IMG/VR virus record: IMGVR_UViG_3300020159_002019
Location: 1 to 64,000 of that record
DNA: 64,000 bases
Strand: one strand, 5' to 3'
From: a virus
This document shows positions 23,126-61,839 of the stretch, piece after piece. Both the position numbers and the translations under genes were made by a program. Below the pieces are notes generated by a model. The model made no database searches. It had not been told where the DNA came from and saw only the letters and a list, made by a program, of their open reading frames with translations. The number at the start of each line of letters is the position of its first letter. The stretch's first letter is position 1.

Positions 23126-23800
23126 TTATATTATATTATTTTTATTAAAGACAACTAAAAAATAGTCATCATTTTCTTTTATTGTATTCTTATAACTTAC
23201 ATTATAATCGTATGTGTTATAAGTATATTTAATACCCACATTGTCAAATTCTTTTTTATCCCATTCAACTTGTGTTGTATTCATTAATTCCCTTAATACA
23301 TTACCCTCACCTTTTATATTTTCAAATATTCTTCGGTTATTAAACATAGGACACCTAAATCTAATTTCGTTGTCATATACTAACATATTTTCAGCAATCT
23401 TTTCAATCTCAAACTGATCAGCATTTGTTCTTACAGGGTAATAGAACTCATTACTAAGTCCCATATCAATCGGTTCGCAACTAATGCTTTCTAACACACC
23501 AACCATCCCCCTTTTTTCCATTAACGTTCTCATTTTTTCAGGGTCATCAAATCCTTTTGATGATTTCCATTTTTGTTCTGCAAGGTGTAATACTTTATAA
23601 AAGTGTTGTCTTTGTTCTTCAGTTATTTTACCTTGATTTATCCCATTTAAAAACGGGCTTTTAATATTCATTTGGTGATGACCTGGTTGTGACTCATCAA
23701 CCGTATTTAATTGAGATTTCAAGATTTGTTTGTCGGCCTCATTTAAACCCATAAAGAATCCTGTTATCAAACCCATCATCTTTCTTTTTACATCATCCAT
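23126..23800 (-). CDS. Hypothetical protein
   Basis: 224 aa ORF tiled with its neighbours; no motif recognised. Confidence 0.7.
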   Translation of the reverse strand: MDDVKRKMMGLITGFFMGLNEADKQILKSQLNTVDESQPGHHQMNIKSPFLNGINQGKITEEQRQHFYKVLHLAEQKWKSSKGFDDPEKMRTLMEKRGMVGVLESISCEPIDMGLSNEFYYPVRTNADQFEIEKIAENMLVYDNEIRFRCPMFNNRRIFENIKGEGNVLRELMNTTQVEWDKKEFDNVGIKYTYNTYDYNVSYKNTIKENDDYFLVVFNKNNII

Positions 23801-24239
23801 TTTTTAAACTTGTTTTAATTATTTTATTGTAATTTACAAAGTATTCCCTTTGATACCCTAAATACCTACCACTATCCGCTAATATTATCTTACCGTCTGT
23901 TTTTAATACTGGCGCTATTAACACTAATTTTTGAAACCAACTATCATTAAAAAAATTATCACATATAATATAATCAAAACTATAACCCACTAAACGTGAT
24001 TCGTGAATGGTTTGAATTATACAATTAGGATGTGTTATTCTTCTGTTAGTTTCTCTAACCATACCAGAATTCTCCACACCAAATAATATTGATTTATCGT
24101 TCGGTATTTTATTTATATAGTCAATCAATAAACTAGTTAAACCCCATTGTCTCGGTGTGAGAATGAGGTTAAACTTATTATCGTTAAAACTTTTAATAAT
24201 ACCAGTTTTAGGTAATATTATTTCTTTAATGCTTCTCAT
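23793..24239 (-). CDS. Small degenerate terminase-large-subunit ATPase-like protein
   Basis: FNLILTPRQWGLTSLL (Walker A-like, no Lys), RLVGYSFDYIICDNF (Walker B-like), APVLKTDGKIILADS. Likely start at MRSIKE (24239). Confidence 0.55.
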   Translation of the reverse strand: MRSIKEIILPKTGIIKSFNDNKFNLILTPRQWGLTSLLIDYINKIPNDKSILFGVENSGMVRETNRRITHPNCIIQTIHESRLVGYSFDYIICDNFFNDSWFQKLVLIAPVLKTDGKIILADSGRYLGYQREYFVNYNKIIKTSLKNG

Positions 24240-24798
24240 TTGATTGTTTTTCTTCAAAAATAGCAAGTTCAATCGCTTGTTTTAATATTACCGATAAAAT
24301 ATCACTATACCATCTTGACTGTCTATCTTCATCAGTTTTTTCAAAGTTTATTATTGCTTGGAACTCAACATCCGATAATTTAACACCATATTGATTGCAA
24401 TAGAATAAACTCCTTTCACTTATTTTCATAGATGGTATTTCTTCATTAAACTTATAAAGAATACCTTTCTTCAATTCCCAATCAGTATTGTTTAATAAAT
24501 ATAACTTTATTTTACCGATTTGGTGTAAGAAACAAACTTTAATAAGTGACGCTTTTTCAACCCTAAGTTTTTCAGGTAATGTGTCATTTATTTTAACTGC
24601 GTATGCCGTCACTTTTAATATATGATCAACTAATCCACCAGGAAAACAATTATGTAATTGTAATGTGGTTGATGCGGGTGATGTCCATAAATCTTCACCT
24701 AAGAAATCATATAATTCATCAGTAATGAAATTACCGTAATTTTTAACACTATCAATAAATCGTGTTTTATTTTTTTCAATTTTTGCTCTTAAATCCAT
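24226..24798 (-). CDS. HD-superfamily (YhaM-like) hydrolase variant
   Basis: SPAS...H...PGGLVDHILKV and CFLHQIGK (HD changed to HQ). Confidence 0.7.
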   Translation of the reverse strand: MDLRAKIEKNKTRFIDSVKNYGNFITDELYDFLGEDLWTSPASTTLQLHNCFPGGLVDHILKVTAYAVKINDTLPEKLRVEKASLIKVCFLHQIGKIKLYLLNNTDWELKKGILYKFNEEIPSMKISERSLFYCNQYGVKLSDVEFQAIINFEKTDEDRQSRWYSDILSVILKQAIELAIFEEKQSNEKH

Positions 24799-24806
24799 AT
24801 TATTTT

Positions 24807-25061
24807 TTATTTATTAAATATAACTTTAATTTTCCAAAAAGGAAATGTTGGTTCTGATACAGTTCCGTATTGTAAATCTATGTAATTAAGATTACCAATA
24901 GGTGCCGCCATTGGTTGAACTGACACTATATCTTCACCTAATGTTCTAGCATTAACTCTTTGTATTGTTGGCATTATAACACCATTCAATAACGCCCCCC
25001 ATTGTTCGACAAAAGTTTTTTTAGTTTTTTTTCTACTAACGTATTGATTAATTGTTCTCAT
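24807..25061 (-). CDS. Small protein resembling a fragment of a T4 gp23-type major capsid protein
   Basis: IMPTIQRVNARTLGEDIVSVQPMAAPIGNLNYIDLQYG aligns without gaps to the gp23 DIxxVQPMxxPxG region. Confidence 0.65.
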   Translation of the reverse strand: MRTINQYVSRKKTKKTFVEQWGALLNGVIMPTIQRVNARTLGEDIVSVQPMAAPIGNLNYIDLQYGTVSEPTFPFWKIKVIFNK

Positions 25062-25419
25062 ATAATATTAAATATTCTTCAGTAAATAATGCACACATTT
25101 CCGCTTCCCAATCCATAGTGTTAAAAAATTTAATATCGTCAATAACCCCTCTTTTATCAAACATAAATCTTGGAAGTCTTTCCATAATATCTTTAATAAT
25201 TATTTTACTCTCGTGTTTAAATCTTGGTTTTATTTTATTTATTACTCTAAATATTATTGGGATAATCATACCATTATGCTCACTTATTTCAGATTCAAGT
25301 AATGTTTTAGCGGAATATTCTAAACAATAAGCCATCATTTTAGGGTTATTGGCGTATTCTAAAAATCCCATATTACCCCATTTTTTAATTAATAGATTAG
25401 AATTTTTTAATGTTCTCAT
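25048..25419 (-). CDS. Small protein with gp23-like N-terminal segment
   Basis: LIKKWGNMGFLE...MMAYCLEYSAKTLLE...IIPIIFRV resembles the N-terminus of gp23-type capsid proteins. Confidence 0.45.
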   Translation of the reverse strand: MRTLKNSNLLIKKWGNMGFLEYANNPKMMAYCLEYSAKTLLESEISEHNGMIIPIIFRVINKIKPRFKHESKIIIKDIMERLPRFMFDKRGVIDDIKFFNTMDWEAEMCALFTEEYLILYENN

Positions 25420-26201
25420 AGATTTAATAACACCTCACTCTCATTTTCAATGTCATCTATTGATGTTATTTTATAATTCATAAAAACATAATCATTGTGA
25501 AGGTCGTGAAACTTTATACCTTTATCTTCAATCGTGTATTCTAAAAAGCCGTGATTATTTATTTTTTCCCCATGCGACTGCTGTACCAAACTACCCACCA
25601 TCACAACCGGAATACCTTTTTCAGTTTTCATAACACTTCTTTTATGGATGTCAGAGTTTAAAGCAACATCACAATCATTAAAATCCTCAATATCTAACCC
25701 ATCCTCAAATATAAAGTTTAAGTCAGTTGTAGAACCTCTTAAAGGTCCGTGTTGTAATCCAATATAACGCTTACCTTCTTCTCTAATTATTTCAGGTTTT
25801 GTATTACCTTCAGTTATACCCCAAACACACCAAACAATATTTTCATCTTCATAACACCCTGTTTTATTTAAGAACGTAATTTTATCATTACTTAAAGCAT
25901 TTAATATTGGTGTTAAAATATCTAACCTATCTAAGTTATTTAATAATAAATCGTGATTACCTAATGTAAGAACAACAGGTGCTATCTTGGTAAGTTCATT
26001 TAAGAAAACACAAGATATTTCAAATAATTCAGGGGTGGCTTGATTTTTGGAATGTGCCCAATCCCCACCAAAAACTATTCTATCGGGCTTAATTTCTTTT
26101 AATTTCGGTATGAATTGATTGAAAAAAACTTCTTTATATTCATCGTGGTATTTATATAAACGGATGTGTAAATCCCCAAAATACGCAATTTTATTTATCA
26201 T
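25416..26201 (-). CDS. Metallophosphoesterase, SbcD/Mre11/T4 gp47-like recombination nuclease
   Basis: GDLH, GGD, GNHD, QHG, SDIHK, GSLVQQSHGE. Confidence 0.85.
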   Translation of the reverse strand: MINKIAYFGDLHIRLYKYHDEYKEVFFNQFIPKLKEIKPDRIVFGGDWAHSKNQATPELFEISCVFLNELTKIAPVVLTLGNHDLLLNNLDRLDILTPILNALSNDKITFLNKTGCYEDENIVWCVWGITEGNTKPEIIREEGKRYIGLQHGPLRGSTTDLNFIFEDGLDIEDFNDCDVALNSDIHKRSVMKTEKGIPVVMVGSLVQQSHGEKINNHGFLEYTIEDKGIKFHDLHNDYVFMNYKITSIDDIENESEVLLNL

Positions 26202-26549: not shown

Positions 26550-27635
26550 ATGGAAATTACATTAGAAGAAAAATTAGCATTATATAAACAAGTTAAGGCT
26601 CGTTTAGGTGCTCCGATTAGAAAAATACAATTAACCGATGAGCAAATGGATGATTTATTACAAACAGCCATTGAGGATTATGCTCAATACACACAAAATT
26701 GGTTAATTGAGAATCAATGGAGTTCTCTTGAGGGTATAAACTTAGATGTTGCAGATATTACATTCGCTTTAACAACAAGAAGTTTAAATTATGAAACCTC
26801 TTTTACATACGCATACTCTAAAATTGTCGGATTACAAGCCAATGGTCCGTGGGAAATAAAAAAAGATTATGTTGTATTAAAAAGAAAACAACAAATATAT
26901 CAAATACCAGCAGGTAGAGAAATAAATGAAGTAATGTATGTTACGCCACCAACTATGAATCAGTCAGTTATTGATCCATTCTTAGGTGTATGGAACTTCC
27001 ATTTTGGCGCTGAATACATTGGTTTAGGTGCGTTATATGTAATGCCAGCATTTGACATTTTATTAAGGGCTGCCGACAGAAACTTAAAGAATAGAATTAT
27101 TAGAAGTGAATATGTTTATAAAGTAACGGCAGGTCCAAATGGTACAAAGTACTTACATTTATTACCAACTCCAGGTGGTAAATATGATTACTATCAAGGA
27201 AATATTGATGGGCATTATGTTTGGTATTGGTATTATGATGTAAACGCCGAAAGACAAAGGTGTATTGAACAAAATAAAGATATTGTTAAACTACCAAGTG
27301 ATACACCTCTAAGTAAATTACAATGGTCGGATTTAAATGATCCTGCTAAATATTGGGTTAGAAGATATTTTACAGCGTTATGTAAAGAAACATTAGCTTA
27401 TGTAAGAGGAACATTTAGTGGTAATTTAGGGGCTCCTGGTTCTGAAATTAAGATGGATTATGAAATGTTTGCAAGTTCAGCCAAAGAAGAAAAAGATGCT
27501 TTAATAACGGAGTTGAAAGAGTATTTGGAAAGAATAAGTCAGCCTAAGATGTTAGAAAGAAAAGCCGGTGAAGCCGAAAACTTAAATACAATATTAAAAT
27601 ACAGACCATTCCAGACACCTTATTTATTAATATAA
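26550..27635 (+). CDS. Neck / head-completion protein (T4 gp13-like)
   Basis: KARLGAPIRKIQLTDEQMDDLLQTAIEDY; C-terminal WVRRYFTALCKETL...RG...PG...A.EEK. Confidence 0.8.
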   Translation: MEITLEEKLALYKQVKARLGAPIRKIQLTDEQMDDLLQTAIEDYAQYTQNWLIENQWSSLEGINLDVADITFALTTRSLNYETSFTYAYSKIVGLQANGPWEIKKDYVVLKRKQQIYQIPAGREINEVMYVTPPTMNQSVIDPFLGVWNFHFGAEYIGLGALYVMPAFDILLRAADRNLKNRIIRSEYVYKVTAGPNGTKYLHLLPTPGGKYDYYQGNIDGHYVWYWYYDVNAERQRCIEQNKDIVKLPSDTPLSKLQWSDLNDPAKYWVRRYFTALCKETLAYVRGTFSGNLGAPGSEIKMDYEMFASSAKEEKDALITELKEYLERISQPKMLERKAGEAENLNTILKYRPFQTPYLLI

Positions 27636-27682: not shown

Positions 27683-28000
27683 ATGAAAACAATTAAATTA
27701 ACAGAACAAAATTTAACCAATATCGTTAAGAGGGTTATTAAAGAAAATGGTGGGGCGAGGATAGGGAAAAAATATTCATCTGAAGATGCAAATTACGAGT
27801 ATTATGACAGAAAAATTGATGAGATGAAAGAATCGTTAATAAATACTAAATTAAAAGATATATCTAATTTTAATATGTATGAATATATAACTGATGATGA
27901 TATTGAAATCATTGATTCGGATCCCGATTTAGAGGTTTTATCATCCGAAATAGATGATATTGTACGTGTTATTGAACATATTAGGGAACTGTATTATTAG
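27683..28000 (+). CDS. Small acidic late protein with putative capsid-targeting leader
   Basis: N-terminus MKTIKLTEQNLTNIVKRVIKE. Confidence 0.65.
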   Translation: MKTIKLTEQNLTNIVKRVIKENGGARIGKKYSSEDANYEYYDRKIDEMKESLINTKLKDISNFNMYEYITDDDIEIIDSDPDLEVLSSEIDDIVRVIEHIRELYY

Positions 28001-28002
28001 TG

Positions 28003-29934
28003 ATGAGTTATAACAGACAAAGTAATTTTAACAATTTAGATTTAGTTCTCCCATTTATGAATTATTGGGATTATGAACTAACGCCTAATCAATACACACC
28101 CGAATATATCTATTCAACAGATATTGTAAGAAATGGTTTAATATTTGATTTTGATTTCGATTCAACCGATACAAATATACATATCGTAGATGGTGCTATT
28201 CAATACATAGAAACACCAACTTATTCATCTAAACAATACACATCAGGTTTTACTCTAACAGATATTGGTTTAACATCAATAAATGTGGGAACTCAAACTG
28301 ACGGTTCTAATTATACAATAGGACAAAATCCTGTGGATTATCCGGTATTAGGTGAATATACAGCGACAACACTTTCATTTACAGGTGAAAGTTTAACATT
28401 TGTAAGTGGTAATACAAACCTTAAATTATGGAGAGTATTCCCATATGGGACAACAAATTATGATTTCCCATTACAATTATGGAATGATACAAGTGGTCAG
28501 TATATAGAGTTTGGTGGAGGATATTTTAATGGTTTCTATAAATTATATGGGTATCCTTATCAATTAATACAAAAAAGATTTAATAAGGGATGGACAGTTC
28601 AATTAAACTTAAATACAAAATACAACCCTTCATTATTTACTGATTTTACAAAATTAAAGTTGAATGATACATTTACAGGTAATACAGGTTTCTTTTTATA
28701 TTTTGGTGTAAGACAAGAAAATAAGTTTTATGATTCATTTACAGGTATAACAAGTTTAGCGTTTAATACAATTTTAAGTGGTATATCATCAACATTTACA
28801 GGTATAACAAGTCAAGAATTAAGAACAACAACAGATATTTCAATAGATCCTTATCTTGAAATTCAAGAACAAAATTTAATTCAGAATAATATGTTGATTC
28901 CTGGTTATGGGACTTGTAATTGTAGTACCAATGGTTGTACGGGTTGTGGTGATAACTATTATGATTGGAGTTATACTCCAACAATATGGTCAGGTATAAC
29001 AGATAACGTATTAGGTTTTAGGGTGACACCTGATTTTAGATTGGGTTATAGGAAGATAACAACAAATACATTTTGTATATCAACCGCAATAACATCGACA
29101 GATAGATGTGGTAATACAATAATTACAACAGGTTATACTCAAGTAATGGAACCGAAAATAGTGGAAGAATATGCTCCAATACCAATGTTTACAGGATATA
29201 CTTGTGGTGAGTGTAATCCAAATACATTATCTACTTGGATAAATTTAACAATTAAATGGGAAAGAGATTATCCATATCAAACAGATTGTGAATTAGAATA
29301 TGGTAAATATAAGAACGGGACATTAAAGACATATGTGAATGGCAGACCTTATTGGAGTGTGACAGGATTTACGGAGTTTATACCTTATGAATTACCAACA
29401 GATCCTTCAAAACAAGAAGGAGTTCCATTTACAATAAGTTTAGGTGGTGGTAGTTCAGGATTATTCCAAAGTCAGGTTTCATTATTAAAAGAAACACCTT
29501 TAATATGGAACAACATTCAGATGAATTGGGAAGATGTGATGGAATTATGGAACGCAAGTAATTATAAAGATTTCACACCCTACGATTTATTTTTGGGTAA
29601 ATATACAGGTGGAACAAATGTGGATTTATGGATACAAAATTATTTCGCTGGAACATATTTAGGTGGTGTTAGTTCATTTAAGATGTATGAAAAACCATTA
29701 GATATTGGTGAAATAAGACATAATTATAATTTAGAAAAATGTAGGTATAATTTCAAAGGTAATTTTGGTGGTAGATTAATTGTATTACCTGAATATGGTT
29801 GTGAAGTATTACCTTGTATTCCTCAATTTTTTGATGATGCCCTAATTGTTGATAACTTTAGTGGTTATAATGTAGATACACAAGAAGATAATCCAAATAC
29901 AAATATTAATGACGAAGAGTATTTAATTGTATAA
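28003..29934 (+). CDS. Virion structural protein with LamG/concanavalin-like features
   Basis: GWTVQLNL, WINLTIKW, GTLKTYVNG, ISLGG, FKMYEKPL...EIRHNY; rich in Thr, Gly and Cys. Confidence 0.6.
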   Translation: MSYNRQSNFNNLDLVLPFMNYWDYELTPNQYTPEYIYSTDIVRNGLIFDFDFDSTDTNIHIVDGAIQYIETPTYSSKQYTSGFTLTDIGLTSINVGTQTDGSNYTIGQNPVDYPVLGEYTATTLSFTGESLTFVSGNTNLKLWRVFPYGTTNYDFPLQLWNDTSGQYIEFGGGYFNGFYKLYGYPYQLIQKRFNKGWTVQLNLNTKYNPSLFTDFTKLKLNDTFTGNTGFFLYFGVRQENKFYDSFTGITSLAFNTILSGISSTFTGITSQELRTTTDISIDPYLEIQEQNLIQNNMLIPGYGTCNCSTNGCTGCGDNYYDWSYTPTIWSGITDNVLGFRVTPDFRLGYRKITTNTFCISTAITSTDRCGNTIITTGYTQVMEPKIVEEYAPIPMFTGYTCGECNPNTLSTWINLTIKWERDYPYQTDCELEYGKYKNGTLKTYVNGRPYWSVTGFTEFIPYELPTDPSKQEGVPFTISLGGGSSGLFQSQVSLLKETPLIWNNIQMNWEDVMELWNASNYKDFTPYDLFLGKYTGGTNVDLWIQNYFAGTYLGGVSSFKMYEKPLDIGEIRHNYNLEKCRYNFKGNFGGRLIVLPEYGCEVLPCIPQFFDDALIVDNFSGYNVDTQEDNPNTNINDEEYLIV

Positions 29935-29940
29935 AATAAC

Positions 29941-29948
29941 TATTTATA
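29941..29948 (+). promoter_or_regulatory. Putative late promoter TATTTATA
   Basis: TATTTATA-N3-ATG (29952). Confidence 0.7.
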
Positions 29949-29951
29949 AAT

Positions 29952-32900
29952 ATGGCACAAGGAAGAATATTAAAAGATTTAACAGGTATAAACAGCGGAC
30001 AAGTAAAACCGTCTGAAGATTTATTATTACTATATAGTATATCAGGTAATACATCAAATAAAATAACTATTGATGATTTTAAAACGGCGATTAATTTTAA
30101 CGGTTATACTGCAAATACAATCAGTAATAACACATTTTATCAATACACATCTGACACTAAAAACATATTAGATGAAAAAATAGATATTAATTTTTTCTCG
30201 AATTATACAGGTAATACCATAACACAAGGAACTGGTAGTTATTCAACCGTAAGAAATGGTAATAATAATTTCGCAATCGGTAATTGTTCTACTATTATTG
30301 GTGGTGTTAATAACTACACGGATAAAACTAATTCTGTTATTTTAGGTAGTAATTTAACTGCCACAACAACAAATACGACATTTGTAGAATCTTTAAATGT
30401 TAAAGATTTTATTTACGATAATACGGGATGCGCTGGTTTAACAGGACAATTTATAGTTGCAACTGCTGATGGGTTTGCTTGGTGTAATGCTGGTGGTGTC
30501 GGTAATTGTATTTTAGTTGGTGGGGGACCTGGTTTATTAGGCGCTCAAGGTTCGTCATTTATTGGTGGTGGTGATAATAATACAATAGCTGAAGATAATT
30601 ATAATGTTATTGGTGGGGGACAATCAAATACCTTAACAGGTGGTTTCAATTCTATCTCTTCAGGACAACAAAATTTGGTGTCGGAAGCGGGTCGTTATTC
30701 ATCAATAAGTGGTGGTTATTGTAATACATTATCAGGTTATTATTCAGTAATCGGTGGCGGTAGAAATAATAACGTCAATGGTAAAGGTGGTGAAGGATTT
30801 CAAGTAATCAATGGTGGTTGTAATAATTGTTTAGGGGTAAATAGGGGTTCATTTATTGGTGGTGGTTGTCAAAATACTGTTTCAGGTAATTTATCGTTAA
30901 TTGTTGGTGGTGAAAATAATTTAATTGGTGAAAATATTAATGACTCAAATAATAGTGTTTGCTCAATAATCGGTGGTGGTGAGTTTAATACTATTACAAA
31001 TGGTAATTATTCAGGTATTTTTGCCGGTTCAAATAATTGTGTTGGTGGAAACTATTCATTAGTTAGTGGTGGTTTTTATAACACCGCAATTGGTAATGTC
31101 TCAACCGTAATTGGGGGTTGTTCTAATTGTGCGTCTGGGTCATATTCATTAGTTGGTGGGTTTAATAATACGGCATCAGGAGCATATTCAGTTATTTTAG
31201 GTAATAATAATAATGATAGTGGTTGTAGTGGTGTTGTAATGTTAGGTTTTGTTGGTGACGCCGATAGAGATAATGCAGTTTTTATAAATAACACTAGCAT
31301 TCGTGGTTATTTGTATGATAGTAATAATACATCAGGAACAGGAAATCAAATTTTAAGTGTTGATAGAAACTCAGGTTATTTATCTTGGGTAGATATAGAC
31401 ACCCCTTTAGGTTCTACATCAAGATTATTAAACAGTAAATTAAGTATAAGTGGTGGAACTATTTATGGTAATTTAGTTGTTAATGGTAATTTACAATTTG
31501 CGGGGACAGCAACAACAGTTAATAGAGCTTCATTATTAATATCAAACCCAATAATTGTTTTAGCTTCAGGAACAACAACACCAACAAAAGACGCAGGTTT
31601 CTTAATTGATAGGGGTTTGACAGGTGATACTGTATTTATATGGAGTGAAACAAATCAAGAGTTTAGAATAGGTTATACAAATAGCATATATACAGCATCA
31701 ACAATAAACATAACGAATTATAGTAATTTAAGATTAAACCAATTAGCCGCTAACTATATATCAGATATAAATGGAAACACAGGAACAACTAACTATATAT
31801 TAGGTTCAACTTCTAATGGTATTGTTTGGATTCCAAATACCGGTAATACAAATAATACATTAACAGGTTTAAATAGTTTTGTAGGTGCGGGTAGTGGTAA
31901 TACATCTTATGGTTCTTATTCATTTGTAGGTAATGGTATAGGTAATACCGCTTATGGTAGTAATTCATTTGTGGGTGGTGGTAATTTCAATACCGCTGGT
32001 GATACACCAAATGGTTGGGAAGTCGTAGTAAATGGACAATTTAATAAGGCTTTAGGTGATTATTCATTTGTGGGTAATGGTTTTAGGAATATAGTATCAG
32101 GTGCAACATCATTTATTGGTAATGGTTGTAATAACTTAATATCGGCCTCTACATCATCTTTTATTGGTGGTGGTTTAAGTAATACTATAAGAAGTTGTAA
32201 TTCAACAATAGGTGGCGGACAAAATAATACAATAAAATTTAATACAGGAACAACGTCAAATACTATCGCTGGTGGTAGTTGTAATACAATTGATGGTTAT
32301 TGTAGTTTTATAGGTGGTGGTTATTGGAACACTGTTACTTTAGCGAATTACACAACAATAGGTGGTGGTAGACAAAATTACGCTGTTGGTTCATATACAT
32401 CCGTAAGTGGTGGTTATAAAAACTCGGCATCGGCAAATTACTCATTCATTGGTGGTGGTAAAACAAATAGAACATCAGGACAATTTTCTTCTGTTGTTGG
32501 TGGGTTATCAAACACATCTTCAGGTTATTGTTCATTTATTGGTGGTGGTGTTGGTAATATATCGTCAGGAAGTATGTCAGGTATAATATCTGGCTCAGGT
32601 AATACAGCAACATCACAAAATTCATTTATTGGTAGTGGTTTATGTAATGTAGTAAATGGTATATCATCAAATATTGTTGGTGGTCGTTTAAATAGTGTTA
32701 AAATGAATAGTTCATCAGTTGTTGGTGGTTGTGGAAATATTGTAAGTGCAACAACGTCATCAATTTTAGGTGGTGAAGGAAACGTAGTTAATGTACCGAA
32801 TTCATTTATAGGTGGCGGTATGATGAACGTAGCCGGTTCTGTCAATGAATACGATATTTTAGGTATAAATAATTTAGACATTACAACATCAGCATCGTCA

Positions 32901-35900
32901 AGCAATTTTAGTGTTGGTGATGAAATTATTGTATATAATCAAAATGATTTAAAGTCATATAAAACATACATAAGTAATATTAATGTTTTTGGTGGAAATA
33001 CTATAATAACTGTCACATTATCTGTTGGTGGTAATTCTTTCGGTGGTAAGATATATGAATTATTACCATTAAATACCTCAACAAATTACTCAGTATCAAT
33101 AGGAAGTGGTTGGTTTAATAAGGTTAAATCCAAATATTCAACAATATCTAATGGGTATAATAATAATATATCTTCCGAATCTTCATTTATAGGAAGTGGT
33201 AATGGTAATATACTATTTGAGTCAGCACAATTCTCATTTATTGGTGGTGGTAATAATAATAAATCTTGTTGTAGTGCAACTTTTATAGGTGGTGGTTGTG
33301 GGAATATAATAACCGGTAACACATCAGTAATTGTAGGTGGTCGTTCTAACATTATAAAAAACGTGGACTCTTTCATTGGTGGTGGATGTTGTAATTACAC
33401 AACGGCTTGTTTTGGTTTCATTGGTGGTGGATCTAATAATAAATCTGACGCATCTAGTTCTTTTATAGGTGGTGGTAATTTTAATTTAGTTAAAGGATCT
33501 AACGATGTAGTTGTTGGTGGTTGTGGAAATACATCATCAGGTGGGTATTCTATTATTGGTGGTGGTTCATCAAATTGTATTGGTAATCTATTGTCATCAG
33601 TTTTTGGCGGTGCGGCAAATACATCATTAGCGGATTATTCAACCATAGGTGGTGGATGTTGTAATTACACAACGGCTTGTTGTGGTTTTATAGGTGGTGG
33701 TTCATCAAATTGTGCGTCATCAAATAATACAGTTGTCGCCGGTGGTAATGGTAATACATCATCAGGCCCAGCATCGGCAATTTTAGGTGGTAATGTAAAT
33801 AAGTCAACAGGACAATATTCAGCAATTGTAAATGGTTTAACTAATTTATCTTGTTTTAATTTTACATTTGTAGGTAATGGTGTATCAAACTCAGGAACAA
33901 CATTTAACGCAACCGTTGTTAATGGTTGTGAAAATATATCATCAGGTAATTTTTCTTTTATAGGTAATGGTTGTTGTAATATAGCTCGTAGTAATTACGG
34001 TTCGGTTCTTAACGGTTTTCGTAATAATAATGGAGGGTTATATTCATCTATTCTTGGTGGTTGTTCTAATACAATGACTCACAGTAACTCATTTATATTG
34101 GGATCTAACCTAACAAGTGATAAAGATAATACGACTTATGTTGAAAACTTGGACGTTAAAACGAATATTTATGATAGCACAAATAGTGCTGGTAATATAG
34201 GACAAGTATTATCTTCAACATCAACAGGGGTTAAATGGGTTGATATGACAGGTTCAACAAATAGTATTTTTAGTTTCACAGCAACACCTGTAATACAACA
34301 ATATTATACAATCCCATCAAACTTAACGACAAGTGTTGTTGGATCGTCATACAGAATATCTAATGGTAATATAGTTCAAACAACAGCAACTTATTCAACA
34401 ATTAGTGGTGGTAGAGGTAATACCGTTAATAATTCATATTCAACAATTGCTGGTGGGTGGAATAATCAATCCGATTCTTGCGCATCAATTGGTGGTGGGT
34501 TTGGGAACTCTGCTGGAATATGCGCTGTCGTAGGTGGTGGTATAACAAATATATCTAGTGGGGCTGCGAGTGTAATAGGTGGTGGTTTAAGTAATAACGG
34601 AAAATGTTCTTTTTCAACAATCGCTGGTGGTTCTAATAATACATCTTGCGGTGAATCTTCATCAATTGGAGGTGGTTATTTAAATTGTGTTGGTAATAAC
34701 GCAACATTTACTTCAATCGGAGGTGGTTGTAAAAATTCGGCAACAGGTGCAGGGACAACAATTGGTGGTGGGTGTTCAAATCAAACACGTGGTTTTTTAG
34801 ATGTAATTGCCGGTGGTGTTAATAATACAACATCGGGTGGATATACTACAATAAGTGGTGGTAAATCAAATTGTGGTGGGGCTGTATATTCATCAATAGT
34901 AGGTGGATTTAAAAATACAACATTAGGTGATTATGGATTTATCGGTGGTGGTCAATGTAATTATCTTAAAGGAACTACTAATAACACAACATATCCATCA
35001 GTAATCGGTGGTGGTAATCAAAATACAACTTTAACAGACAATACAGTAATCGGTGGTGGATTCTTTAATATAATAAGTGGATCATCGTCAAACAATTCAT
35101 TTATAGGTGGTGGAACACAAAATAAAATATGTGGTTTAGTTGTCGGATCATTTATAGGGGCTGGACAAAATAATACGATATATAGTAGAGCTTATAGTTC
35201 ATCAATTATTGGTGGAAGTAATAATTATACAATTTATCCGGAAACACATATTTTAGGTTCAAATATTACCGCCACAAGATCGGGTACAACATACGTTGAA
35301 TGTTTAGACATCAAAACACATTTATATGATTACACAAATAGTAAAGGAACTGATGGTCAAGTATTGACTTCTACTGAAAATGGTGTTGTTTGGTCAGATA
35401 CTTCAGGTGGTGGTAGCAGTGCTGTAATTATATTAGGGACAGGAACCGGTTCTTCGGTAAGGAAGGATAATAGTAATTTTACGATGGGTAACTACTCGAC
35501 AGTAAGTGGTGGATATTGTAATTGTGTATCGTCAAATGGAGCTTTTTCAACCATAGGTGGTGGCTGTTGTAATACTGTTCTACAATTGGGTTCAACCGTA
35601 AGTGGTGGATATTGTAATGTAATTAATGGTAGCTGTGGTTTTATAGGTGGTGGTTGTAAAAATAATAATTCAAGTCTATTATCAGCAATAGGTGGTGGTA
35701 TTTGTAACACAATTTTAGCTCATTGTTCATTTGTTGGTGGTGGTTGTAAAAATACAATATTTGCCGGATATGAACAATCACAATACTACTCAACCATAGG
35801 TGGTGGTTATAATAATGTTTTAACCTCTAATTATTCAGGTATTTTAGGTGGATGTGGAAATACGTTAAATTATAATAAATCTTTTATTGTTGGTAGTGAT

Positions 35901-36029
35901 ATAACAGCGGATAGAATTTGTGCTACGTTCGTAAATAACTTATCAATTATGAATATCCCAACATCAGCAACAGGATTACCTTCAGGATCTATTTATAAAG
36001 ACGCCAATGGTTTCTTAAAAATTGTTTAA
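29952..36029 (+). CDS. Long tail-fibre/adhesin-like protein with glycine-rich beta-roll repeats
   Basis: 2025 aa; dozens of ~15 aa S-x-I-G-G-G-x-x-N repeats separated by G..GQ.L.S...G..W fibre joints. Confidence 0.8.
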   Translation: MAQGRILKDLTGINSGQVKPSEDLLLLYSISGNTSNKITIDDFKTAINFNGYTANTISNNTFYQYTSDTKNILDEKIDINFFSNYTGNTITQGTGSYSTVRNGNNNFAIGNCSTIIGGVNNYTDKTNSVILGSNLTATTTNTTFVESLNVKDFIYDNTGCAGLTGQFIVATADGFAWCNAGGVGNCILVGGGPGLLGAQGSSFIGGGDNNTIAEDNYNVIGGGQSNTLTGGFNSISSGQQNLVSEAGRYSSISGGYCNTLSGYYSVIGGGRNNNVNGKGGEGFQVINGGCNNCLGVNRGSFIGGGCQNTVSGNLSLIVGGENNLIGENINDSNNSVCSIIGGGEFNTITNGNYSGIFAGSNNCVGGNYSLVSGGFYNTAIGNVSTVIGGCSNCASGSYSLVGGFNNTASGAYSVILGNNNNDSGCSGVVMLGFVGDADRDNAVFINNTSIRGYLYDSNNTSGTGNQILSVDRNSGYLSWVDIDTPLGSTSRLLNSKLSISGGTIYGNLVVNGNLQFAGTATTVNRASLLISNPIIVLASGTTTPTKDAGFLIDRGLTGDTVFIWSETNQEFRIGYTNSIYTASTINITNYSNLRLNQLAANYISDINGNTGTTNYILGSTSNGIVWIPNTGNTNNTLTGLNSFVGAGSGNTSYGSYSFVGNGIGNTAYGSNSFVGGGNFNTAGDTPNGWEVVVNGQFNKALGDYSFVGNGFRNIVSGATSFIGNGCNNLISASTSSFIGGGLSNTIRSCNSTIGGGQNNTIKFNTGTTSNTIAGGSCNTIDGYCSFIGGGYWNTVTLANYTTIGGGRQNYAVGSYTSVSGGYKNSASANYSFIGGGKTNRTSGQFSSVVGGLSNTSSGYCSFIGGGVGNISSGSMSGIISGSGNTATSQNSFIGSGLCNVVNGISSNIVGGRLNSVKMNSSSVVGGCGNIVSATTSSILGGEGNVVNVPNSFIGGGMMNVAGSVNEYDILGINNLDITTSASSSNFSVGDEIIVYNQNDLKSYKTYISNINVFGGNTIITVTLSVGGNSFGGKIYELLPLNTSTNYSVSIGSGWFNKVKSKYSTISNGYNNNISSESSFIGSGNGNILFESAQFSFIGGGNNNKSCCSATFIGGGCGNIITGNTSVIVGGRSNIIKNVDSFIGGGCCNYTTACFGFIGGGSNNKSDASSSFIGGGNFNLVKGSNDVVVGGCGNTSSGGYSIIGGGSSNCIGNLLSSVFGGAANTSLADYSTIGGGCCNYTTACCGFIGGGSSNCASSNNTVVAGGNGNTSSGPASAILGGNVNKSTGQYSAIVNGLTNLSCFNFTFVGNGVSNSGTTFNATVVNGCENISSGNFSFIGNGCCNIARSNYGSVLNGFRNNNGGLYSSILGGCSNTMTHSNSFILGSNLTSDKDNTTYVENLDVKTNIYDSTNSAGNIGQVLSSTSTGVKWVDMTGSTNSIFSFTATPVIQQYYTIPSNLTTSVVGSSYRISNGNIVQTTATYSTISGGRGNTVNNSYSTIAGGWNNQSDSCASIGGGFGNSAGICAVVGGGITNISSGAASVIGGGLSNNGKCSFSTIAGGSNNTSCGESSSIGGGYLNCVGNNATFTSIGGGCKNSATGAGTTIGGGCSNQTRGFLDVIAGGVNNTTSGGYTTISGGKSNCGGAVYSSIVGGFKNTTLGDYGFIGGGQCNYLKGTTNNTTYPSVIGGGNQNTTLTDNTVIGGGFFNIISGSSSNNSFIGGGTQNKICGLVVGSFIGAGQNNTIYSRAYSSSIIGGSNNYTIYPETHILGSNITATRSGTTYVECLDIKTHLYDYTNSKGTDGQVLTSTENGVVWSDTSGGGSSAVIILGTGTGSSVRKDNSNFTMGNYSTVSGGYCNCVSSNGAFSTIGGGCCNTVLQLGSTVSGGYCNVINGSCGFIGGGCKNNNSSLLSAIGGGICNTILAHCSFVGGGCKNTIFAGYEQSQYYSTIGGGYNNVLTSNYSGILGGCGNTLNYNKSFIVGSDITADRICATFVNNLSIMNIPTSATGLPSGSIYKDANGFLKIV
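33378..33681 (+). repeat. 34 bp direct repeat inside the fibre gene (33378-33411 and 33648-33681)
   Basis: ggtggtggatgttgtaattacacaacggcttgtt occurs twice, 270 bp (6 x 15 codons) apart. Confidence 0.85.
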
Positions 36030-36043: not shown

Positions 36044-36412
36044 ATGGATTTCTTTATAACAAAAAATAGCACATTACCAATTCTTACATTAGCTTTAATT
36101 AAAGATGGTAGATTCGATTATCATAAATTAAATGATAAGTTAGAATATGCGTCAATTACATTTTCAATGCGTGATGTAAATACCAATAAATTAGTTGTTG
36201 CTAATAAAGAAGCTAATATTATTTTAGCCAATATGAACCAAACAACGGAATATTATATAATTTATAAATGGAGTGCTAATGATACCAAAAAAGAAGGTAG
36301 GTATGAAGCACAATTCGATATAACTTTTTCAGATGATGGAAGTAAATTGATTGTTCCAATTAGAGAAAAATTATATGTGAATGTTTTGGATAGTTTTGTA
36401 AAATCAAATTAG
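36044..36412 (+). CDS. BppU-like (baseplate upper protein N-domain) virion protein
   Basis: ASITFSM, YKWSANDTKKEGRYEAQFDITF...LIVP. Confidence 0.6.
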   Translation: MDFFITKNSTLPILTLALIKDGRFDYHKLNDKLEYASITFSMRDVNTNKLVVANKEANIILANMNQTTEYYIIYKWSANDTKKEGRYEAQFDITFSDDGSKLIVPIREKLYVNVLDSFVKSN

Positions 36413-37731: not shown

Positions 37732-38070
37732 TTAGTTTATTATAGAAAAATCTACACTTATTGTAAATTCTTTTATGTTATTTTGTTGTTCAGTATAACT
37801 ACTAACAAAACACCCATAAAATTCTTTATTATCGATATAAATATTATATTTACAGGTAAAATTAATTTCAGATAATAATAAAATTAGATTACTATCATTT
37901 GTTTTAATCGTTAATTGGTTTGTAGAAATAAATAAATGATTTAATGATCTATTGTATGTAATATTATAATCAAAACTCAATATTGGGTAGTGTTTTAATT
38001 CACCCCCAATATCAAGCCTAATAACATTATTATTTTTTTTATTTCTTACGTATTCTTTAATTTCCCTCAT
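37732..38070 (-). CDS. Hypothetical protein (weak resemblance to a tail-tube C-terminus)
   Basis: C-terminal FYGCFVSSY...EFTISVDF; N-terminus MREIKEY. Confidence 0.55.
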   Translation of the reverse strand: MREIKEYVRNKKNNNVIRLDIGGELKHYPILSFDYNITYNRSLNHLFISTNQLTIKTNDSNLILLLSEINFTCKYNIYIDNKEFYGCFVSSYTEQQNNIKEFTISVDFSIIN

Positions 38071-61053: not shown

Positions 61054-61839
61054 ATGGAATTAGATATAAAGAATTTAGATCAGTTAAAAGCTATTGGTGC
61101 CGCTCAAGAGAGTAATGAACCATACGATGTTATACCCTTACCAAGCGAAGGGTTATTTTACACAAATAAAAAATCATCTGTTAAAGTATCATATTTAACC
61201 GCGGCTGATGAAAACATATTATTATCACCAAATCTACTTAAATCAGGTAAAGCTTTAGACGTTTTATTGGAAAGAAAGATAATGGATAAAGATATTAAGC
61301 ACAATGAATTATTACCTGGTGATAGGGATGCTATATATATTTTTTTAAGAACAAGTGGTTATGGTAATATATACCCTGTTAAATTGACTGATCCTAAAAC
61401 AGGTGACGAATTTGAATATGGGGTTGATTTAAGTGATATAAAATATAAAGAATTAGTTGAGCCTGATAGTAATAATGAATACACTATGAAATTACCCTTG
61501 TCAAAATCCACCATTAAATTTAGATTATTAACAACTAAAGATATTGAATCAATTGATGAGGAAATTGAAAAGAAAAAGAAAATGATGAAATTTTATGTTG
61601 ATGAAACATCAACAAAAAAATTAGAAAGAATGATAATGGAAATTGATGGTGATAGAGATAAAGGTAGAATTGCTCAATTTATATTAAATATGAGGATTGG
61701 TGATAGTTCCGCTATTAGAAAAGAATACAATAGGGTAGAACCTGGTTTAGATTTAGGCTTGGAGGTTGAGGCTCCAAGCGGAGAATTTTTTCGTACTTCA
61801 GTACCAATCAGCCTTTCTTTCTTCTGGCCTGATTTTTAA
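61054..61839 (+). CDS. T4 gp26-like baseplate hub / tail assembly chaperone
   Basis: IPLPSEGLFY, LTAADENIL, GDRDAIYIFLR..GYG, LPLSK..IKFRLLT, FFWP; lies upstream of the tape measure. Confidence 0.72.
   Translation: MELDIKNLDQLKAIGAAQESNEPYDVIPLPSEGLFYTNKKSSVKVSYLTAADENILLSPNLLKSGKALDVLLERKIMDKDIKHNELLPGDRDAIYIFLRTSGYGNIYPVKLTDPKTGDEFEYGVDLSDIKYKELVEPDSNNEYTMKLPLSKSTIKFRLLTTKDIESIDEEIEKKKKMMKFYVDETSTKKLERMIMEIDGDRDKGRIAQFILNMRIGDSSAIRKEYNRVEPGLDLGLEVEAPSGEFFRTSVPISLSFFWPDF

Follow-up and report, generated by a model that had tools for sequence, protein, structure and literature searches.

A family of small tagged genes in an uncultured T4-like phage

The DNA analysed here (the window) is the first 64 kb of the 109,290-bp IMG/VR viral contig IMGVR_UViG_3300020159_002019, which has a CheckV completeness of ~34% and a GC content of ~28%. 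The contig carries several T4-type markers (an SbcD/gp47-like nuclease, a UvsX-like recombinase, a T4 baseplate protein and a neck protein), its close relatives are freshwater metagenome contigs, and the virus is an uncultured T4-like phage of roughly 300 kb. Our subject is a family of small open reading frames (ORFs) that share an N-terminal tag, some of which encode excerpts of the T4-type major capsid protein (MCP).

In the window, an SbcD/T4 gp47-like nuclease gene (25416-26201, minus strand) heads a co-directional run in which mini-ORF A, mini-ORF B, gene C and mini-ORF D follow in this order, and then two further genes. The gp47-like gene and A overlap by 4 nucleotides (nt), A and B by 14 nt and C and D by 14 nt, while a gap of 8 nt separates B and C. 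A first-pass annotation of the window had described A, B and D as three intact minus-strand ORFs, and all three were found. It had also pointed out that their starts resemble that of a fourth ORF at 37732-38070, a likeness that proved to extend further. Nine ORFs of 74-148 amino acids (aa) begin with MR[TSE][ILV], compared to 0.14 expected from composition. They lie in four places (A/B/D, E, F/J and G/H/I):

25048-25419, minus strand: mini-ORF A, 123 aa (127 aa in relatives), start MRTLK; its first 4 nt (ATGA) contain the stop of the SbcD/gp47-like gene
24807-25061, minus strand: mini-ORF B, 84 aa; overlaps A by 14 nt; clear T4-type capsid excerpt by profile match
23793-24239, minus strand: mini-ORF D, 148 aa from the MRSIK ATG; overlaps C by 14 nt; predicted single RecA-like domain
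37732-38070, minus strand: mini-ORF E, 112 aa, start MREIKEYVRNKK; shares 14 nt with the family-2 glycosyltransferase gene upstream
Contig 79400-80060, outside the window: mini-ORF F, 116 aa, start MRSVKQIKK; overlaps J by 23 nt
Contig 79400-80060, outside the window: mini-ORF J, 110 aa, start MRSISKI; overlaps F by 23 nt
Contig 95773-96493, outside the window: mini-ORF G, 81 aa; capsid excerpt by profile match, gp23 248-312
Contig 95773-96493, outside the window: mini-ORF H, 84 aa; capsid excerpt by profile match, gp23 435-478
Contig 95773-96493, outside the window: mini-ORF I, 74 aa; payload ends in a fibre-like G..W.DG.G motif

In most members the first four residues are followed by Q-Y, a K/R run and a Trp near position 14-21, and the tag consensus is MR-T/S-I/L-N/K-Q-Y, then the K/R run, then Trp. 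Every tagged mini-ORF overlaps the stop of its upstream gene, by 1, 4 or 14 nt. The operons that contain tagged genes are headed by the gp47-like nuclease or by glycosyltransferases; G, H and I stand in tandem, with a glycosyltransferase gene before them and an RNase H/FEN-like gene after them. The class consists of lineage-specific small genes that are translationally coupled and lie in non-structural operons. PHROGs, Pfam and a T4 protein panel gave no family for the payloads of E, F, I and J.

The 14-nt overlap is a recurrent design, found at 24226-24239, 25048-25061 and 38057-38070 with the form ATGAG(A/G)nnnATTAA, in which the TAA of the upstream gene falls inside codons 4-5 of the mini-ORF. 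In relatives, A and B overlap by 26 nt instead of 14, so the position of the stop is not fixed.

Four of the nine payloads resemble excerpts of the major capsid protein

The first-pass annotation had read two of the three ORFs, A and B, as capsid-like. This held firmly for B, which matched Pfam PF07068 (Gp23) with an E-value of 1.1e-5 and 25.4 bits, passing the curated cut-off of 24.4, and phrog_138 with an E-value of 5e-5. A custom hidden Markov model (HMM) of 546 columns, built from 61 T4-type capsid proteins, detected B at 5.6e-12, G at 7e-17, H at 1e-10 and A at 0.007. G was also over the Pfam Gp23 cut-off (53.5 bits) and H was below it (18 bits). For A the earlier reading stood only weakly. 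No match to A was obtained in Pfam, PHROGs, PDB profiles or a tblastn search of deposited phages, and its alignment to the custom HMM covers MCP columns 16-82, equivalent to the propeptide of gp23 (residues 4-46). The C-terminal half of A had no match in these comparisons; a candidate assignment of its tail (DWEAEMC..) to the capsid acidic helix was rejected, the similarity being not significant. The capsid likeness of A is therefore marginal.

To place the excerpts, the ORFs and the real T4 gp23 were aligned together to the capsid HMM, and profile searches of the PDB agreed with the result:

A residues 5-42: gp23 4-46 (N-terminal propeptide)
B residues 26-67: gp23 92-133
G residues 13-77: gp23 248-312
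H residues 23-61: gp23 435-478

By these profile alignments, four of the nine payloads (A, B, G and H) are identified as excerpts of a T4-type major capsid protein, A weakly so. B consists of the leader MRTINQY with its K/R run and EQW..LLNG, then the capsid excerpt, and then an invariant tail, FPFWKIKVIF. The columns that never vary within the B family (D..VQPM..P.G) or within the G family (W..E..QD..F..ID.E.E) hold the signature residues of the capsid protein.

Each excerpt ORF aligns to just 37-65 capsid residues, and HMM columns 114-297 and 363-480 are absent. None contains a complete HK97 fold (N-arm, E loop, P domain, spine helix and A domain; at least 350 aa). With neither the E-loop insertion domain nor the A domain among the excerpts, these proteins cannot build a shell. 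The excerpts are ~50% identical both to the capsid proteins of the clade and to unrelated T4-type ones, and are therefore old and not recent copies. More distant relatives, traced via the neck protein, carry T4-type capsid genes at full length (584 and 650 aa), so the excerpts are extras.

These data bear on whether A, B, G and H might be one real capsid gene split into pieces, or recent pseudogene debris of such a gene. The 109-kb contig yielded no full-length Gp23-type gene, and A and B stand side by side and match successive parts of the capsid protein, as a split gene would have it. However, the pieces cover ~150 of >520 residues, with no A domain or E loop, every piece begins with a start codon and tag of its own, and the identity of ~50% to related and unrelated capsid proteins marks them as old. 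The contig is moreover only ~34% complete, intact capsid genes occur in the more distant relatives, and the ORFs are conserved at synonymous distances (dS) of up to 1. Both the split gene and the debris are hardly credible and were rejected as already contradicted by this evidence. A frameshift fusion of A and B was likewise discarded, each piece having its own tag and the A domain being missing, as was a different genetic code, since long ORFs read normally under table 11.

Mini-ORF D resembles a dead helicase domain

The first-pass annotation had taken D for a terminase-ATPase-like protein. Structural comparison alone was equivocal. The predicted model of D has a RecA/P-loop fold (predicted local distance difference test score, pLDDT, 67), and with this model the four top Foldseek matches in the PDB were T4 gp17, at an E-value of 1.4e-3. 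Z scores from VIA were tied between terminases (10.1-10.8) and helicases (9.4-11.1). The sole tblastn match among deposited phages was the terminase of the cyanophage S-RIM2, at an E-value of 0.2. A cyanophage TerL HMM gave an E-value of 0.12 and phmmer against T4 gp17 one of 0.89, neither of them a match, and PF03237 (large terminase) had no match in the contig.

Profile comparisons pointed the other way. In hhalign, D aligned to a TerL alignment with a P-value of 1e-3 to 1e-2 and a probability of 4-18%, compared to a P-value of 5.9e-9 and a probability of 95.9% for the D family against the N-domains of UvrD/Rep helicases. The latter alignment spans 72 columns covering the Q-motif region, motif I, motif Ia and T-x-H. 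When the D-family profile was searched against 1.84 billion proteins, it retrieved small relatives and two UvrD/Rep helicase N-domains (P0107 and P0108; E-value 6e-4), which carry PF00580 at 2.5e-17 and 2.7e-10, respectively; no terminase was among the matches. No PF00580 match was found in the contig, D included. Profile searches of the PDB with narrow and widened D families gave no meaningful match, and an ESM Atlas search was uninformative (scores of 0.86).

The Walker A motif of D reads R-Q-W-G-L-T, in which the Lys is replaced by Leu, and its Walker B motif reads C-D-N. This Leu is present in every close member of the D family, and the distant small relatives have no Lys there either. D ends at 148 aa, without a C-terminal nuclease domain and without the remaining helicase subdomains. 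An alternative TTG start at 24272 is not supported by the relatives. Because the helicase alignment is far stronger than the terminase one and the Walker A Lys is lost, D is best classified as a dead helicase-type domain and not a mini-terminase, a candidate outweighed by the UvrD/Rep profile matches, the tie in Z scores and the head-to-head hhalign comparison. Judged by its profile, it is a dead single RecA domain of the domain 1A type of UvrD/Rep superfamily 1 (SF1) helicases. This reassignment removes a tidy picture of one decoy per known trigger of host defence.

The metagenomic proteins P0107 and P0108, whose Walker A motif is intact, link UvrD/Rep helicases with the dead D family. In a further metagenomic protein, P0109 (188 aa), the loop is degenerate as in D (Q-M-G-L-T), so the loss of the Lys may have been repeated or early.

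The mini-ORFs are open and under selection

The gp47-like gene, A, B, C, D and the next gene occur in the same order in six relatives (dS 0.1-1.0). In all six, A, B and D are open, with no frameshift or stop and with nearly fixed length; the exceptions are four additional residues in A of the relatives and a 5-residue deletion in one D homologue. Simulated neutral substitution at comparable depth left such ORFs open in <3% of trials. The flanking genes of the relatives are 90-99% identical, with ratios of nonsynonymous to synonymous change (dN/dS) of 0.03-0.15, whereas identity falls to 43-94% in A, B and D, and their dN/dS is 0.35-0.9 (A, 0.36-0.91; D, 0.35-0.74; capsid-like core of B, 0.35). 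A, B and D are open, selected genes and not debris, as the first-pass annotation had proposed and as its suggested comparison of dN/dS across relatives bears out. They evolve at a rate 5-10 times that of the neighbouring genes, and this raised rate fits a role in conflict.

The changes are unevenly distributed. The ends of B are its most conserved parts, the FPFWKIKVIF tail being invariant in all family members. In the last ~17-23 codons of B and A (24807-24857 and 25048-25116), dS is 0.13-0.16 compared to 0.4-0.8 elsewhere. Because the last 17 codons of B have such unusually low dS, the B/C junction also appears to be constrained as DNA, and these values suggest a nucleotide-level signal at the junctions of both B and A with the next gene.

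Such a constraint would suit relic ORFs that are kept open for translational coupling or embedded signals, in which the capsid and helicase fragments serve as ribosome-passing spacers and the peptides themselves do little. The overlap of every member with an upstream stop, the conserved ends of B, the low dS at the junction tails and the high overall dN/dS all agree with this, and T4 itself has small ORFs, alt.-1 and alt.-2, whose annotation traces them to an ancient duplication of the beginning of gene alt. We consider the spacer role very unlikely nonetheless. The dN/dS of the cores is 0.35-0.5 rather than 1, the columns that stay invariant in B and G are the signature residues of the capsid protein, and the same excerpts are found in other phages behind unrelated N-termini and in fusions, which a spacer role does not explain.

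Capsid excerpts recur and are fused in uncultured giant phages

The breadth of the class was examined in a collection of 5.8 billion proteins. B-type proteins formed 26 clusters of 78-86 aa (with one 60-aa outlier) at 60-98% identity, and G-type proteins formed 46 clusters of near-constant length. In proteins of 71-213 aa, the G-type excerpt stands behind unrelated N-termini. Four proteins (P0029, P0030, P0050 and P0089) are fusions of a G-type and then a B-type excerpt, whereas in the capsid protein the B segment comes first, and in P0075 G is joined to the tail of H; the latter is encoded on the same 312-kb contig as a B homologue. These natural fusions suggest that the excerpts may act together. 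An AlphaFold model of the G+B fusion P0030, predicted from the single sequence, had a pLDDT of 30 and was unusable.

A search with G against 50,697 deposited phage genomes found only full-length capsid genes, at one place per record. The class is common in uncultured giant phages and absent from the deposited phage genomes searched, and our literature searches found no published description of such phage genes. It shows how pieces of essential genes become new small genes, by joining a tag to an excerpt, with fusions and permutations.

Neighbouring genes and other features of the window

Three further features of the window were used to describe its setting:

24226-24798, minus strand: gene C, HD-domain phosphohydrolase-like, 190 aa, with weak HD matches; lies between B and D
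26550-27635: neck protein, T4-type marker
61054-61839: T4 baseplate protein, T4-type marker

Gene C is outside the mini-ORF family and is 90-96% identical among relatives, with a dN/dS of 0.08. The first-pass annotation had grouped A, B and D in one cluster and had left out gene C. This HD-domain-like gene sits amid fast-evolving mini-ORFs and yet is among the best conserved at the locus.

Between the neck gene and a 122-aa gene at 36044, the window holds three genes (105, 643 and 2025 aa; 27683-36029) that are without a family except for one weak beta-roll match. The flanking genes adjoin in a more distant relative, so this region looks like a lineage-specific insertion in the structural block.

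The motif (A/T)TATTTAT(A/T) was observed 6-15 nt before the start codon of many plus-strand structural genes, with sites of this type upstream of 1690, 26248, 27683, 44161, 53191, 57588 and 62027. Its use as a late-promoter mark to date the mini-ORF operons was abandoned, since with 145 copies in the contig it is too common to classify operons.

Possible functions of the tagged capsid excerpts

All well-characterised head-length mutations of T4 can be sorted into three groups, which lie close to the quasi-threefold axes at which capsomers adjoin (Fang et al. 2022, PMC9546572). The first group (A268V, A275T, D285V and D287V/N) lies beside a short acidic P-domain helix, the second (T457A, R460C and G461S) in the P loop, and the third (A66D, A94V and G97S) in the gp23 N-terminus, which contacts the scaffold (PMC9546572). 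After all ten residue identities had been checked in T4 gp23, nine of the ten positions were found inside G, H and B, respectively, and the excerpt in B includes the length-mutation sites A94 and G97. B, G and H are the segments that bear the three head-length clusters, at inter-capsomer contacts, an overlap that is suggestive without being proof. With three clusters and 29% of the protein covered, the probability of such an overlap by chance is ~0.02.

We tentatively favour, as a possible reading, that the excerpts in A, B, G and H work by competitive mimicry, imitating the contact segments of the capsid and acting on capsomers or scaffold. Besides these positions, it draws on the intact and selected ORFs, the breadth of the B and G families, the natural fusions, the full-length capsid genes of the wider clade, the excess of tagged starts and the translational coupling, and the gp23 N-terminus also directs fusions to GroEL (PMC3012670). 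The mimics would be produced from replication and modification operons and would bind the complementary surface normally met by these segments, whether on unassembled capsid protein, on capsomers or on the scaffold. Binding would cap or divert the growth of the shell. The outcome could be a timing of the phage's own head assembly or, as we think more likely because the excerpts evolve fast, sabotage of co-infecting T4-type rivals or satellites. The shared tag would provide one common address or partner for all members.

Several observations weigh against capsid-contact mimicry. The overlap with the mutation clusters is confounded, since the same segments are the most conserved in the capsid protein and an excerpt has to be conserved in order to be recognised. 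Mimicry of conserved contacts should harm the capsid of the phage itself as well, and the capsid-like core of B changes faster than would be expected with a partner as conserved as the capsid protein. Mimicry does not cover the whole class, because D is not a virion protein and no match was found for the payloads of E, F, I and J. Finally, a search of the 109-kb contig, itself ~34% complete, did not find a full-length Gp23-type gene.

The tag offers a different starting point. It weakly resembles the first ~25 residues of T4-type capsid proteins, and HMMER placed B 12-38 on gp23 4-30, neither of these likenesses being significant. When an HMM of the capsid N-terminus only was run over 1243 ORFs, A ranked first (E-value 0.064) and B third. 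The tag may then act like the capsid-targeting sequence of T4 internal proteins, or like the scaffold-binding N-terminus of the capsid protein, so that the mini-ORF products would be loaded into proheads and either be trimmed there by the prohead protease or enter the cell together with the DNA. In T4 internal proteins, too, a single conserved tag precedes payloads of diverse kinds (PMC3012670). An (L/I)-x-E site is present in the tags of G, D and E, and F-x-E in those of A, B and J. However, the tags of H, I and F have none of these sites, the mini-genes lie outside the head-gene block, and the likeness of the tag to the capsid N-terminus falls short of significance. Cargo of this kind is in our judgement distinctly unlikely.

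The core of B aligns to gp23 92-133, where the 29-residue Gol peptide of T4 lies. This positional equivalence bears on the proposal of the first-pass annotation that the mini-ORFs are decoys for host sensors. Excerpts made early would occupy or pre-empt sensors of the Lit/Gol or CapRel type, or sensors of ATPase/helicase folds, without triggering them. Lit and CapRel read the capsid protein via short motifs (bioRxiv 10.64898/2026.01.04.697583), and such motif-type sensors are possible targets. The evolution of A, B and D at 5-10 times the rate of their neighbours, the placing of the genes in non-structural operons behind a gp47-like nuclease or glycosyltransferases, and the dead helicase-like D in the same cluster are all compatible with decoys, and an equivalent proposal is in print for ankyrin proteins of Bodo saltans virus that carry fragments of essential genes (PMC5871332). 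Other findings argue against it. The free Gol peptide on EF-Tu switches Lit on and does not block it (PMC3014915), and EF-Tu is far too abundant for titration. Avs7, Avs8 and Avs10 surround the HK97 fold in its entirety and make contact with its A domain, which is absent from the excerpts (bioRxiv 10.64898/2026.01.04.697583). The leg of the proposal that joined a terminase to Avs sensing is lost, D being helicase-like and not TerL-like, and literature searches found no phage decoy of a protein pathogen-associated molecular pattern (PAMP). On balance, we regard decoys as unlikely.

Taken more broadly, giant freshwater T4-like phages might hold a whole set of tagged pieces, separate or fused in permuted order, copied from their own capsid protein, which act in trans on assembly, either setting and guarding the size of their own jumbo heads or disabling the heads of rivals, or that blind immunity of the Lit/CapRel type. 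From the sequence relationships described here, this general proposal is plausible but doubtful. If capsomer contacts are indeed affected in trans by the excerpts, these would be the first regulators or weapons encoded by a phage and derived from its capsid protein that target the quasi-threefold "anchor points" by which T4 head size is set, and would bear on how jumbo heads are measured and on the competition of phages within one cell. If motif-sensing immunity is blunted instead, they would be the first protein-PAMP decoys in phages.

Comparison with known systems

The exclusion system formed by Gol, Lit and EF-Tu (prophage e14) resembles the B gene in that the core of B falls on gp23 92-133 and that Gol is a short capsid segment which is a ligand on its own (PMC3014915). 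In contrast, Gol is part of a full capsid gene and its free form activates the host defence, whereas B is a separate gene with an added tag and an invariant tail; the likeness is positional. The ankyrin-repeat proteins of Bodo saltans virus are encoded by many small genes that combine a common module with fragments of the virus's own essential proteins, for which the authors propose a decoy role (Deeg et al. 2018, PMC5871332). That virus is a eukaryotic giant virus and its proteins use an ankyrin scaffold with fragments of catalytic domains, whereas the tag here has ~20 residues.

The T4 internal proteins (IPI-III and Alt) are also fast-evolving small payloads behind one short N-terminal tag, and an anti-defence role is known for them (PMC3012670). 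Their tag differs in sequence; the cleavage sites of the mini-ORFs are inconsistent, and the payloads that could be assigned to the capsid are excerpts of the capsid protein itself. Fragment-derived small ORFs have a precedent in the textbook phage, as read at 31066-31451 of the T4 record, whose annotation derives alt.-1 and alt.-2 from an old duplication that copied the first part of gene alt and gave it a new stop and start. They are a single case without a shared tag, a family or evidence of selection.

For D, the nearest known relative is domain 1A of UvrD/Rep SF1 helicases (Pfam PF00580). The D-family profile is alike, and D differs in being one domain with the Lys of Walker A replaced by Leu.

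P4 Sid, SaPI CpmB and PLE TcaP are small satellite proteins that bind inter-capsomer regions of the capsid and alter the geometry of the shell, in conflicts among mobile elements. These redirectors are satellite-encoded and not derived from the capsid protein, whereas the mini-ORFs are phage-encoded and, by their profiles, capsid-derived.

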